From assembly GCA_964291285.2 (NCBI GenBank), contig OZ219787.1:2016001-2080000 (forward strand): a stretch of DNA of 64,000 bases, given 5' to 3'. This DNA comes from Alphaproteobacteria bacterium (GTDB lineage: Bacteria; Pseudomonadota; Alphaproteobacteria; Bin95). Below the pieces are notes generated by a model. It did not search any database, was not told the DNA's origin, and saw only the letters and a list, made by a program, of their open reading frames with translations. The position numbers and the translations under genes were made by a program. Shown here in pieces: positions 1,687-52,497 of the stretch (the stretch's first letter is position 1; each line of letters begins with the position of its first letter).

Positions 1687-1817
1687 GCTGTCTCCGCCTG
1701 CATCCCGTCTGTCGCTTCTTCGTCCCGTTTCGTTCCCTCCGTCCCGGTTTACGTCCGGTATGCCTGCGGAGCCCTCCGCCAATGCCGGGGGACGGCCGGG
1801 GGCCCACTCCAATGGAA

Positions 1818-1844
1818 TGTCATGAAGTGTCATGTTTTGTCATG
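1818..1844. repeat. Three TGTCATG heptamers at exact 10-bp spacing (array A)
   Basis: tgtcatg-aag-tgtcatg-ttt-tgtcatg starting at 1818, 1828 and 1838. Confidence 0.9.
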
Positions 1845-2524
1845 CGGCCGGTCTCTGCCCCGGTCGTTTGCGCCGGGCCGAGGGTCGTTCGCAAGGCATC
1901 GCAGCCTCCTTGCCGGTCCGTGGTCCCGGACGCTTCGTTGCCGGAGGCGCGTCCCCCGCCCGCGCATAATGCGCGCCCGGCTGCGCGCGCGTCCGCGTCC
2001 GCGGGGTGGCGGGCAGGACCCCTGCCGGAGTGTCGCGGCATGTCATGATATGTCATGTTTTCGTCATGGAGGCCCGCCGCGGCGTCCTGCTCCTCCCCGC
2101 CGCCGTCTCCGCCTCCGCCGGCCTGTGCGGCCAAGGCCTGTTTCTCCCTCTTCTTCCTCCTCTTCTCCTTCTTCCTCCTCTTCCTCTCGCGCGCTTCGCG
2201 GCGGTCCTGCCGTTGGACCCAGGCGTAGAACTCGGGCGTGTCCCGCCTGCCTGTCCAGACCGCGCCGAGGTAATGGACCTCTTCCTGTTCGGGTTCCGGT
2301 TCGGGCAGGTGCCCGGCGCTCCAGTCGAGCAGGGCGAGGAGCTGTCTGAGATGGGCGAGCCCGGCGCGTGCGGCGCGGTGGTAATCGGCGCGGGCGCGGT
2401 CGTCCTCCGGCGGCGGTCCGGCGTCGATGTCCCCGGCATAGGCAGCAGCGAGGGCTTCGGCGGCCGGGGCAAGCCGCTCCAGCAGCGCCGCCGCCAGTCG
2501 GGGTCGGGGGTCGGTTTCGGTCAT
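1820..2524 (-). CDS. Hypothetical protein. N-terminus resembles small helical ORFs found before large terminases in Rhodospirillales GTA-like clusters; has a basic low-complexity tract
   Basis: RBS GGAAGGAGG at 2530-2538. Sequence MTETDPRPRLAAALLERLAPAAEALAAAY...PPEDDRARADYHRAARAGLAHLRQLLALLDW, then RERKRRKKEKRRKKREK. The 3' end is uncertain. Confidence 0.55.
   Translation of the reverse strand: MTETDPRPRLAAALLERLAPAAEALAAAYAGDIDAGPPPEDDRARADYHRAARAGLAHLRQLLALLDWSAGHLPEPEPEQEEVHYLGAVWTGRRDTPEFYAWVQRQDRREARERKRRKKEKRRKKREKQALAAQAGGGGDGGGEEQDAAAGLHDENMTYHDMPRHSGRGPARHPADADARAAGRALCAGGGRASGNEASGTTDRQGGCDALRTTLGPAQTTGAETGRMTKHDTS
2041..2068. repeat. TGTCATG heptamer array B
   Basis: tgtcatg-ata-tgtcatg-tttt-cgtcatg, with a degenerate tgtcgcg at 2031. 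Confidence 0.85.
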
Positions 2525-2570
2525 CCGTGCCTCCTTCCAGGCCAAGGGCGGGACGGGGTGTCCCTGTTTC

Positions 2571-2755
2571 GCGCGTAATGCGCGGGGGTGTGCGCGGGCG
2601 GGCGGGCGTATCGCGGCGGCGCGGCTCGCGCGCCTGATTGCGCGCGCGAGCCGCAGGGCGCACCTCTCCTGTCCGCTCTCGCCGGGGGTTTTGCGGCCCC
2701 CAGCCATGCTTCCCTGCGCAGAAAAGCGGAAAGGCGGCCCCGGGAGCCGCCTTTC
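2571..2755 (-). other. Conserved structured leader, copy 1 (homologous to 50019-50194)
   Basis: Perfect 13-bp stem 2621-2633/2642-2654 with loop CTGATTGC. Motif gcagggcgcacctctcctgtccgct. Hairpin gaaaggcggc..gccgcctttc at 2729-2755. Confidence 0.75.
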
Positions 2756-3071
2756 TCTCATGCCTATTCTACACCATTTCGCTGAAAGTCAAGCTGATGA
2801 GGGAACAAAAGATGGAAATATCGGGTGATTTTCTTACAACCCGTTGAACAGGCGGGATAATGTCGGTGTTGCCGGATTGCGATCCATGAGGAACAGTGCT
2901 CCACCGTCGCCCCGGCCGCCGCCGTTGCAGAGCGGGCGCGACCGTCGGGGCCGGCGTAACGGCCGCGCTGGACCCCGGCTCTCCGCCGGCGCTCCGGCCG
3001 GGGCGACAAAAAAGAGTGCAAGGGCAAGGAAAGGCGGCGGCGCCGTCGGTTCCGATCGATGACCGCGGGTA

Positions 3072-49502: not shown

Positions 49503-49563
49503 CGGCGCGGTTCCCGGCCCCGTCTCAACCCGGCTAGGCCTCGCCCGCGCCCGTTCTGCGCGG

Positions 49564-49594
49564 CCCTCACCCAACCCTCTCCCCGGGGAGAGGG
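49564..49594 (+). repeat. REP-like element
   Basis: ccctcacccaaccctctccccggggagaggg, containing the hairpin ccctctccc/gggagaggg. Confidence 0.65.
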
Positions 49595-49706
49595 CTTTCT
49601 TTCGATGCAACCGTCCCGCATCCCCATGACTCTCTCCTCGCGCTCGGGGAAGGTCAGCCTTTCCGCGCAGTGCGGCCCTGCCGGGCGCGGATACTCCCTG
49701 GCGCCG

Positions 49707-49733
49707 TGTCATGGAATGTCATGTTTTGTCATG
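49707..49733. repeat. TGTCATG heptamer array C (10-bp spacing)
   Basis: tgtcatg-gaa-tgtcatg-ttt-tgtcatg, nearly identical to 1818-1844. Confidence 0.9.
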
Positions 49734-49954
49734 GTCGGGGGTGAAATCGCCGTCTCCGGGCGCATCGAAGGGGCCGGCCCTCTGGAACCAGTCGAGGCTG
49801 TCCTGCCGGCGCTGTTCGATGTTCTCCGGCGACCAGGGGGCGTGGAGTTCGGCGTCGTTGTTGCGGCGTCTGCGGCGTTGCCCGACGCGGTGCAGTGGCG
49901 GCAGAAGGCTTCCTGGCGGGTGGAGAGGGCGACGGTCGGGTCGATGATAGGCAT
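49709..49954 (-). pseudogene. Terminase small subunit-like gene with apparent internal deletion and frameshift
   Basis: RBS GAAGGAG. LSTRQEAFCRHCTASGNAADAA matches the TerS N-terminal HTH pattern. The rest reads with host-like codons only in another frame (NDAELHAPWSPENIEQRRQDSLDWFQRAG...HDKT*). Confidence 0.6.
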
Positions 49955-50018
49955 GGCGGCTCCTTCATTCCGCTTCGGTTCGACAACCATGCCGTCCCGG
50001 CAGGGAGCGACCCTTATC

Positions 50019-50214
50019 CGCGCGTATCCCGCGCGGGCGCCTGCGCCGGCGCGGGCGCGCCATTGCGCCGGCGCGGTTCGCGCGCCTGATTGCGCGTGCG
50101 CGAGGCGGGCGCAGGACGCACCTCGCCTGTCGGCTGAATCGGGGTCGTTCCGCACCGGGCCGGCGCGGGCGGGAAGCGGCTCCGGATGCCGCTTACCTCG
50201 AACCCATCATATCA
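50019..50214 (-). other. Conserved structured leader, copy 2, with extended -10 promoter
   Basis: Loop CTGATTGC at 50086-50093 in a GC stem. Motif gcaggacgcacctcgcctgtcggct. Hairpin at 50174-50194. TG-A-TATGAT on the minus strand at 50206-50214. Confidence 0.7.
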
Positions 50215-50376
50215 CGGATTTTCCTGCTTTAGACCAAAAATAGAGAAACATTACCTAAATTTAATGAACACATGGTCACATCCCTTCGTTGCCCCCGCAA
50301 AACGGGGCCGTCCCCGGTTCCCGATGCCGCCGCAGGCCGGTGGAGAGCAGGCCGAACCGCCCGGTCCGATATCGCG

Positions 50377-51619: not shown

Positions 51620-52404
51620 CTAGGTCCTGTGGACGGATTTGATCAAGATGAAGGCAGCGGCGAGTGCGACGAAGGAGCTGAAGTTTGTGGCGGTCTTTTC
51701 GCAGCGCAGGGCGATGCGTTTGAAGCGTTTGAGCTTGCCGACGGCCTGTTCGATGCGCGCCCGTCCTCTGTAGAGCGCGCTTGCGAAGCGCTTTGGCCTG
51801 TTTTTGATGTTCTTCCGGTAGGGAATGACGGTCAGGGCGCCTCTTTTCCGGGCGAGTTGGCGGTTTCCGGCGCTGTCATAGCCCTTGTCGGCGACGATGG
51901 CGCGGGGCCGGACATCGGGGCCGATGTCCATCAGGGTCTCGAAATGCGGACTGTCGGCTGCCTCGCCGCCGGTCAGGTCGAAGGCGATCGGCAGGCCGTC
52001 GAAATCGGTCTTCAGGTGGATTTTGGTGCTGAAACCGCCCCGCGAGCGTCCAAGCGCCTGACCCTGCTGCCCCCTTTTGCGCCGGCCGCCGATACATGCG
52101 CGCGGGTCACGGTCGAATCGAACATCTGAACCAGGTGCGCCGTGCTGCTCAAATCCGCCAGCGTGGCGAAAAAGTCCTCGAACACCCCTGAACGGCTCAG
52201 ACGGTGAAAACGCCGCCATACCGTATTCCAGTGCCCGAACCGCTCCGGCAGCGCCCGCCAGGTGATGTTGTGAACCGCAAAGAAGTGCAGCGCCTCCAGA
52301 AACAGACGGTCGTCCTTCGCCTTCGCACCCCGCCTCGGAAGGCAAAGCCGGAAAACCTCCAGCGCAACCTCCCAGTCTCCATTCGTCATCTTCGTCGACA
52401 TCAA
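51620..52404 (-). CDS. IS5 family transposase, two ORFs joined by a -1 frameshift
   Basis: ORF A: WRALPERFGHWNTVWRRF..DSTVTRAH. Slippery AAAAGGGGG near 52070-52078. ORF B: GRSRGGFSTKIH, ADKGYDS, YRGRARIE. Confidence 0.88.
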
Positions 52405-52497
52405 CGAAACCCCCGAATCGCCGACGCCTCATGATTCAGACAAATCCTCGCACGGGAATCCCTGAACACGCTCCTGAGTCAATACGTCCACAGGGCC
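51623..52497 (-). mobile_element. IS5 family (IS427 group) insertion sequence, apparently complete
   Basis: TIRs ggtcctgtggacggatt / aatacgtccacagggcc, with a TA duplication on both sides. Confidence 0.9.

Follow-up and report, generated by a model that had tools for sequence, protein, structure and literature searches.

Introduction

Several phage satellites, among them the SaPI- and PICI-type islands and the minimalist islands, carry a small terminase (TerS) of their own. Satellites of the SaPI/PICI type are chromosomal elements that supply this TerS together with a cognate site to redirect the packaging motor of a helper. Here we analyse two loci in a 64,000-nucleotide stretch of an alphaproteobacterial genome (assembly GCA_964291285.2, contig OZ219787.1, positions 2,016,001 to 2,080,000; this whole stretch is "the window") that share one layout, with an open reading frame (ORF) preceded by a conserved leader and ending in an array of three heptamers. 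We conclude that, on balance, the two loci are probably decayed members of a lineage-specific, selfish family of modular repeats with about 100 copies, built around a TerS-like protein and a probable binding array.

The described proteins most similar to the one encoded by intact members of this family are the small terminases of phages SF6 and SPP1 (G1P; Pfam Terminase_2), with which it shares a helix-turn-helix (HTH) domain (41% identity and template modelling (TM) scores of 0.82-0.85 to structures 4zc3 and 2cmp) followed by long helices. Both the phage systems and the family have a promoter of their own (in the family, a reading of the sequence) and a conserved non-coding segment before the gene, and both have a cis site of short phased repeats. 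According to the passages on pac recognition in PMC6316719, the SPP1 TerS binds pac sequences overlapping its own promoter, ribosome-binding site (RBS) and gene start and represses its own synthesis, whereas the repeats of the present family lie at the 3' end of the gene, over the stop codon. The family also differs in that no large terminase (three Pfam families) or morphogenesis genes are found nearby or in the genome, in its 10 intact and ~100 derivative copies, and in a conserved 220-residue extension of the protein that has no match to the TerS C-terminus.

Comparison with other classes of element is similarly mixed. Unlike SaPI/PICI-type satellites, which are present once or a few times per genome, the units are 0.4-1.4 kb in size with a single ORF and number ~100 per genome; they have no integrase, att sites, replication or capsid-remodelling genes, although no search was aimed at integrase. 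REP/BIME, RIME, BOX and Correia repeats and miniature inverted-repeat transposable elements (MITEs) resemble the family in high copy number, intergenic location, preference for convergent genes, a modular mosaic structure with tandem modules, insertion polymorphism and the attraction of insertion sequences (IS), but the family units possess a promoter-like zone, an RBS and an ORF, and the master copies are under purifying selection. Terminal inverted repeats, as expected of MITEs and IS elements, are absent, and no clear target duplication was seen in three empty-site comparisons. REPIN-RAYT systems likewise pair a repeated cis family with a cognate, lineage-specific and vertically maintained protein, but here the protein is TerS-like rather than an HUH transposase, is present in multiple copies and is encoded inside the unit. 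Integron cassettes also combine an ORF that varies with a 3' site that is conserved, and the family has occasional ORF-site-ORF-site tandems; its 3' site, however, is a direct repeat and not an attC-type imperfect palindrome, each unit has its own promoter-like zone and is dispersed singly, and no integrase is linked to the units, though none was searched for. Judged by its sequence features, the family would be a variant of dispersed mosaic repeats or non-autonomous elements, though its master gene and missing transposon hallmarks appear to match no described class. A word search of the open literature, with subscription papers and supplements outside its reach, returned no description of the repeat family or of the exact array string.

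Results and discussion

Copy number and anatomy of the units

The window's own genome (G000) comprises 6.13 Mb in 5 contigs with 68% G+C. A search of this genome for the pattern CATGACA-N3-CATGACA-N3-CATGACA, allowing up to 2 mismatches, gave 120 hits that merge into 109 arrays distributed over all 5 contigs and both strands, compared to none for the reversed pattern used as a control. Within the window there are three matches at the same threshold and none in 100 shuffles, confirming that the triple array is real. A profile search (nhmmer) identified 95 copies of the leader, and leader and array co-occur: for 75 of the 95 leaders an array follows on the same strand within 1.5 kb, mostly at a distance of 114-700 nt, and 87 of the 109 arrays are preceded by a leader within 1.5 kb. 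The sequence-only reading of the window had proposed, from two copies, a dispersed family with conserved flanks in which leader and array go together, and this genome-wide census agrees with it.

In a complete unit an AT-rich promoter-like zone and a 5' hairpin are followed by a GC-rich leader of ~200 nt, an RBS, one ORF and three CATGACA heptamers, the latter spaced by 10 bp (one helical turn) and containing the stop codon. As the heptamer period is 10, the array offers a TGA in all three frames, which can be read directly from the sequence. Homology between copies sets in at a TTGTTC/GAAATAATTC/-35 zone ~85-110 nt before the 5' hairpin, and mostly stops 0-20 nt past the array (unit size, 0.4-1.4 kb), and the loop of the leader hairpin, CAATCAGG, is invariant. 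In one tandem case three arrays follow each other 168-172 nt apart (C1:1183962-1184380). The ORF varies from unit to unit, in keeping with the exchangeable cargo first suggested, and may be a TerS-like gene, a member of a second conserved family, a short junk ORF or, once, an isochorismatase-type gene. Left ends were analysed in 79 of the 95 leaders, those with a profile match beginning no later than position 15; a search for enriched 7-mers upstream of their promoter zone, as a possible left-end motif, gave only generic words belonging to GC hairpins.

Using crude, GC3-based gene calls covering ~73% of G000, we found that 25 of 75 units (33%) lie between convergent genes, compared to 18% of all gaps, and that units show no bias towards reading into downstream genes (36 vs 39 of 75). 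The arrays have no strand or replichore polarity (53/109), with the caveat that GC skew is too scrambled to define origins. Cumulative GC skew in G000 is weak and irregular on the five contigs, and ~45-55% of the crude gene calls are co-oriented with inferred replication, a pattern that suggests extensive rearrangement.

The TerS-like master gene

Ten units in G000, one of them at C2:1109924-1110910, contain an intact ORF of 329-336 amino acids (aa), and the flanks of these ten master copies are mutually unrelated. Residues 11-71 of the encoded protein match Pfam Terminase_2 (E 1.8e-11), the protein matches a PHROG of terminase small subunits (E 1.7e-12), and a profile of 24 homologues compared with the PDB retrieves SF6/SPP1-like small terminases only (4zc3, 2cmp and 3zqp). 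The AlphaFold (AF2) model (predicted local distance difference test (pLDDT) 60) shows an HTH at residues 12-50, long helices at 52-106 and further helices at 146-199 and 248-288, with disordered acidic stretches between; its best Foldseek matches are 3zqq, 4zc3 (TM 0.85, root-mean-square deviation 1.5, 56 columns) and 2cmp. All 12 Terminase_2 hits in G000 belong to the repeat family. Conservation among the 24 homologues is good over residues 1-290 and gives way to a variable tail. The stop codon of the gene is the first TGA of the array, so that the protein has the ending ..APDHDKT in every species; the terminal ..HD(K/I/R)(T/S) of all 24 homologues is array-encoded. Pairwise comparison of the ten paralogues in G000 gives a median dN/dS of 0.27 (44 of 45 pairs, dS >0.03), the TerS-like part (residues 1-110) having 0.22 and the remainder (residues 111-290) 0.29; the TerS-like paralogues are thus under purifying selection.

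An SF6/SPP1-type TerS fold encoded next to a repeated site raises the alternative that protein and arrays are minimal pac modules, which recruit the large terminase of an infecting or induced phage or gene transfer agent (GTA) so that host DNA is packaged from ~100 sites, either interfering with the phage or moving units between cells by high-frequency transduction. A gene-linked cis site is a property of pac phages in the passages on pac recognition of PMC6316719, and heptamers phased at 10 bp would suit a ring of HTH domains. A search of the 17 genomes of the genus with three large-terminase families, other families of large terminase lying outside this search, returned Terminase_3 (PF04466) in 0/17, Terminase_6N (PF03237) in 2/17 (G016 and G005, not G000) and TerL_ATPase (PF03354) in 0/17. 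IMG/VR contains no close relative of the protein, the similarity there being confined to 6 loci that match the N-terminal 45-70 residues at 34-47% identity; phage genomes and plasmid collections likewise match the protein only through its N-terminal TerS similarity, and the DNA of the element has no plasmid match. The lack of strand or replichore polarity of the arrays also speaks against packaging. This is the most interesting of the rival explanations, and the absence of a resident large terminase and of related phages weakens it; overall we consider it unlikely.

Distribution and distant relatives

Of the 16 other genomes of the genus, 13 contain arrays, with 13-190 hits per genome. The 24 further relatives searched, 8 from two sister genera and 16 from other families, contain none, and the reversed control is zero throughout. 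Twelve of the 16 have the TerS-like gene, with 7-17 matches per genome, and a search of 20 genomes from the two sister genera did not find it; 14 of the 16 have the second cargo family. Two genomes of the genus (G001 and G003) have no component of the family, and a third (G013) has a single partial match to the second cargo (residues 4-79). Copies resemble those of their own genome most; copies in G000 are 82-100% identical to the query and all those in G007 are 74-75% identical. In a collection of species-representative genomes all 108 relatives are metagenome-assembled genomes (MAGs) of uncultured Alphaproteobacteria or Rhodospirillaceae, and the sequencing runs with words in common with the window mostly carry sponge or marine metagenome labels, with small shares.

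Of 80 retained loci we examined the 18 most distant. In these relatives from other MAG lineages, at 45-60% protein identity, 14 of the 18 loci have a forward-oriented two-unit array at the ORF end or beyond it, in 7 of the 14 at exactly -14 from the stop as in G000, and the 98.7 kb scanned contain no reverse-orientation array and no hit to the reversed control. Recognition helix and heptamer are both conserved in the 18 loci. The linkage of gene and array is therefore conserved down to 45% protein identity. These distant relatives have no long GC-rich leader and have kept the gene and array. Between a -10-like hexamer and the RBS they carry GAAC-N7-GAAC; of 12 loci, six have the exact box and six a box with a single mismatch. 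In G000 the same box stands just before the RBS of TerS-type units (exact in 11 and relaxed in 21 of 79 units), more than 200 nt downstream of the promoter-like zone, and intact copies have the exact form there. The part of PMC3091678 that gives the alphaproteobacterial LexA consensus has it as GAAC-N7-GAAC / GTTC-N7-GTTC. A LexA-type box, if functional, would tie expression of the unit to the SOS response, and would also fit induction together with prophages, as expected if the arrays served packaging.

In several distant lineages mnmE and mnmG flank the TerS-like gene on either side (confirmed by Pfam for loci L158 and L168, and for L156 and L162 as regards mnmG downstream), and one unit of G000 begins 38 nt after mnmE. 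This location, the LexA-type boxes and the purifying selection would be accommodated by a domesticated host system, in which an SOS-inducible TerS-fold protein, ancestrally a single gene beside mnmE/mnmG, acts as a regulator or nucleoid organiser on ~100 arrays and the repeats spread passively by recombination. Ten near-redundant paralogues and many deletion derivatives fit a selfish element better, however, and presence varies by species, with three genomes of the genus lacking everything apart from the partial second-cargo match in G013. The enrichment between convergent genes and the absence of an orientation bias relative to downstream genes also run counter to domestication, which we regard as quite improbable.

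The two copies in the window

Both loci lie on the minus strand and show the common layout that had been described for them. Copy 1 extends from ~2830 to 1799 and copy 2 from ~50272 to 49707. The features of copy 1 are as follows.

2763-2830, minus strand: AT-rich promoter-like zone, read from the sequence, with TTGTTC at 2803-2808, TTGACT at 2787-2792, a 15-nt spacer and TAGAAT at 2766-2771
2729-2755, minus strand: 5' GC hairpin with a 12-bp stem, at the same position in all subfamilies and varying in sequence
2539-2728, minus strand: leader, with a conserved core at 2602-2673 and the hairpin CGCGCGCGCAATCAGGCGCGCG at 2627-2648
2530-2538, minus strand: RBS, GGAAGGAGG
2069-2524, minus strand: ORF of the second cargo family (MTETDPRP...), with its ATG at 2524
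2031-2068, minus strand: degenerate array, CATGACG-AAAA-CATGACA-TAT-CATGACA-TGC-CGCGACA
1845-2030, minus strand: extra module of ~190 nt, with the palindrome GCGCGCATTATGCGCG, its own RBS and a 19-codon ORF (1899 to 1840)
1818-1844, minus strand: perfect triple array, CATGACAAAACATGACACTTCATGACA
1799-1811, minus strand: 13-mer resembling an IS3-type inverted repeat (IR), TGGAGTGGGCCCC, 6 nt past the array

The frame of the copy 1 ORF continues past the first array to 1820 (234 aa), and the ORF is a shortened member of the second cargo family that has lost ~70 residues of the family consensus. Contrary to the single array first described for each locus, which holds for copy 2, copy 1 thus has two arrays with the ~190-nt module between them; this module occurs 15 times in G000, and the stop codon of its 19-codon ORF is the first TGA of the second array. 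Three independent runs labelled as the same organism provide contigs that span the unique parts of copy 1 with 0 differences and are interrupted at its repeated parts, where word depth is 12-36x higher, which argues that the structure of copy 1 is not an assembly artefact.

The features of copy 2 are the following.

50203-50272, minus strand: AT-rich promoter-like zone, TGTTCATT..., with TGaTATGAT at 50206-50214
50174-50194, minus strand: 5' GC hairpin, AAGCGGC-ATCCGGA-GCCGCTT
49982-50173, minus strand: leader, with its core at 50051-50131 and a hairpin at 50079-50096
49967-49981, minus strand: LexA-box-like GAAC-N7-GAAT, GAACCGAAGCGGAAT, with one mismatch, immediately 5' of the RBS
49960-49966, minus strand: RBS, GAAGGAG
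49709-49954, minus strand: remnant of a TerS-like gene, with its ATG at 49954
49707-49733, minus strand: perfect triple array, CATGACAAAACATGACATTCCATGACA, the only array of this copy

Residues 1-31 of the copy 2 ORF are intact and 26 of the 31 (84%) are identical to a TerS-like homologue, and in another frame the last 47 codons have 37 of 47 identities (79%) to residues 259-305 of the same homologue. Copy 2 is a TerS-like gene that has lost codons ~32-258 and is frameshifted, and it is unable to make the protein. Both ORFs had been taken by eye for small terminases; this holds for the parent of copy 2, a Terminase_2/SF6-like gene of which the ORF itself is a frameshifted remnant, whereas Pfam, PHROGs, Foldseek and VIA-align gave no TerS, HTH or GTA similarity for the ORF of copy 1.

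Genes flanking the window copies include an FGE-sulfatase, SnoaL_2, an altronate/galactarate dehydratase, DUF2794 and a D-serine dehydratase-like gene. The statement that no transposase is nearby fails for copy 2, as an ORF matching DDE_Tnp_1 (E 5e-20) lies at 51620-52432 (minus strand), ~1.3 kb away, though outside the unit. Downstream of copy 2, a hairpin, CCCTCTCCCCGGGGAGAGGG, at 49575-49594 is followed by a T-rich run and is terminator-like; a second hairpin family, GTCACCCCGG...CCGGGG, often adjoins units in G000 and G008. Upstream of the promoter-like zone of copy 2, positions 50303-50343 (minus strand) have a weak match to Guanidine-II (17.9 bits vs a gathering threshold of 32, E 0.44), which most likely is due to chance.

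The leader invites a further alternative, that it is a structured riboregulator or small RNA and the units are mobile promoters that drive or modulate neighbouring genes. Its loop is invariant, the leaders fold somewhat better than shuffled sequences (z-score -2.3 for copy 1 and -3.1 for copy 2) and many copies have promoter-like hexamers. No match to Rfam 15 was found in the window at gathering thresholds and none for the copy 2 leader at E up to 1, no convincing covariation is seen, the units have no orientation bias to downstream genes, and the distant relatives that have no long leader retain gene and array; a mobile promoter or cis-regulatory RNA is thus very improbable as an explanation of the family. 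In metatranscriptome contigs from the only RNA run (0.05 word share), summed depth is 39.5 over the leader bin and at most 12.6 elsewhere, which cannot show that this locus is transcribed.

Second cargo family and other contents

The second cargo family comprises proteins of ~200-218 aa with 155 homologues and has no Pfam family or name; Pfam searches of 22 members gave low-complexity hits in single members only, and the best PHROG is a family of unknown function (E 0.003). Its structural model (pLDDT 75) has an N-terminal helical hairpin followed by two units of a beta-hairpin plus helix. Structure searches returned a best E of 0.88 in Foldseek and Atlas scores of up to 0.86, and VIA-align matched the N-terminal helical hairpin only (Z up to 7.7, within noise), barely covering the C-terminal beta-beta-alpha domain. 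A resemblance of the motif YVGS..PEF.AW in these proteins to GIY-YIG nucleases was considered, and Pfam lends it no support. GIY-YIG hits in G000 number two only, one in a small frame and one in a 661-aa frame. In distant MAG lineages (L150:1822-2130, minus strand, and similarly L151), a divergently oriented gene for a 102-aa GIY-YIG protein (Pfam E 9e-13) lies just upstream of the TerS-like gene.

At C3:1747463-1748521 (minus strand) of G000, a 225-aa frame of isochorismatase type, as read from its sequence, lies between a leader and a perfect array, ending 42 nt before the latter; either it was captured as cargo, or two partial units happen to lie on its two sides. Many other units have only short ORFs that run into the array, and most copies are internally deleted, as copy 2, or rearranged, as copy 1.

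Insertion polymorphism and insertion sequences

Presence and absence of units between species demonstrate insertion polymorphism. At one site G000, G007 and G012 have a unit where G009 and G004 have ~21 nt instead, and another site measures 669 nt in G000 and 14 nt in G007. Eight species have an empty copy 2 site, in which a D-serine-dehydratase-like gene runs straight to what reads as an acyl-CoA-dehydrogenase-like gene. In G000 the latter gene is on another contig, behind another unit (window 49546-50372; C2:1068678-1069300), so that each half of the split ancestral site now stands beside a unit, indicating that two units on different replicons have recombined. The flanks of copy 2, like those of the non-syntenic copy 1, map elsewhere in every relative examined. 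This scrambled synteny at both window copies and the exchange between replicons would be in keeping with units that act as packaging sites and move DNA between cells; new insertions at new loci are not explained by packaging alone.

In the longest units the TerS-like or the second cargo protein is all that is encoded; for neither is an enzyme fold predicted, and no element-encoded transposase was found. Transposase genes do occur within units. The same 619-aa stop-to-stop frame, presumably a transposase of IS1634/IS4 type from its N-terminal motif, lies between leader and array in five units and in both orientations (C1:257755, C1:694048, C3:685823, C3:941136 and C4:199395), and other units are interrupted by IS110-like and IS21-like genes. 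These transposases are secondary IS insertions.

A 13-mer of the TGGAGTGGGCCCC type follows 24 of the 109 arrays within 30 nt, compared with 12 of 5000 random 30-mers, and two types of IS3-family element sit ~6 nt past arrays, an adjacency also present in the distant MAG locus L160. Units could on these grounds be IS3-derived MITEs, mobilised by IS3-family transposases whose IR-like 13-mer trails the arrays. However, an inverted IR-like sequence at the 5' side is present in only 3 of 79 units, so that the units have no inverted IR pair, and 85 of the 109 arrays are without the 13-mer. The insertion of IS3 elements ~6 nt after arrays better fits an array tail that is the target of the IS rather than its end, and a MITE origin is scarcely credible.

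Weighing a selfish repeat family

Returning to a selfish family built around the TerS-like protein, the following observations weigh against it. In G008, ~47 leader cores, a single copy of the second family and mostly degenerate arrays are present without a TerS-like gene, so that the protein is not needed for persistence; as a single case, G008 would also fit a decay of arrays in the absence of the protein. The moderate-confidence TerS-like model (pLDDT 60) shows no catalytic or enzyme fold. Gene conversion may explain the similarity of copies within a genome in place of recent spread, and would bias dN/dS. The promoters first proposed are supported by AT-rich zones with hexamers at both window loci and not by a consensus scan (16-18 nt spacer), which called no element-strand promoter at either because the hexamers are 15 nt apart; a looser rule gives a -35/-10 pair in 34 of 79 units, 24 of these with a TGn extended -10, and "promoter" is best taken as a reading of the sequence rather than a result. 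RNAalifold on 74 of the 95 leaders (<15% gaps, duplicates removed) gave short GC hairpins only, with no convincing covariation.

The ends of the element add to these difficulties. Units have no terminal inverted repeats, the left AT-rich zone being unlike the right array, and no inverted pair of arrays within 15 kb forms a unit. Comparison with empty sites had been suggested to find ends and target duplications; such sites were found, but three comparisons yielded one possible duplication, GCGCG, in a cross-replicon reconstruction and none visible in the other two, with diverged junction DNA, and the inserted segments contain differing extra DNA beyond the promoter zone and array.

By analogy with phage terminases, an oligomer of the TerS-like protein would have its cis binding sites in the phased heptamers that close its gene, and perhaps in the hairpin of the leader too. 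Spread would rely on nuclease or recombination activity supplied in trans instead of an element-encoded transposase, and this would explain why inverted repeats and clear target duplications are missing and junctions are ragged. A bolder form, which we hold to be doubtful, is a class of selfish element in which a TerS-type protein and a pac-like repeat replace the transposase and inverted repeats; here SOS induction or phage infection would load the protein on ~100 chromosomal arrays, a nuclease in trans (for example the large terminase of a helper) would cut, and the ends would seed genome-wide transduction and ragged re-insertion.

Replicons can recombine with each other at the ~100 sites per genome that the family marks, and the family accounts for synteny breaks at these loci and for the fragmentation of short-read assemblies in this lineage. 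It also offers a testable pair of protein and site, the latter a 7-mer present three times at 10-bp phase. Should the arrays prove to be recognised by the TerS-like protein, we would know of no earlier repeat family whose master gene encodes a packaging-type DNA-binding protein rather than a transposase; the family would then bring together three fields, the specificity of phage packaging, hitch-hiking in the manner of satellites and the origins of intergenic repeats. If protein and repeat do stand in for transposase and inverted repeats, the chromosomes of these sponge symbionts would be self-mobilising.

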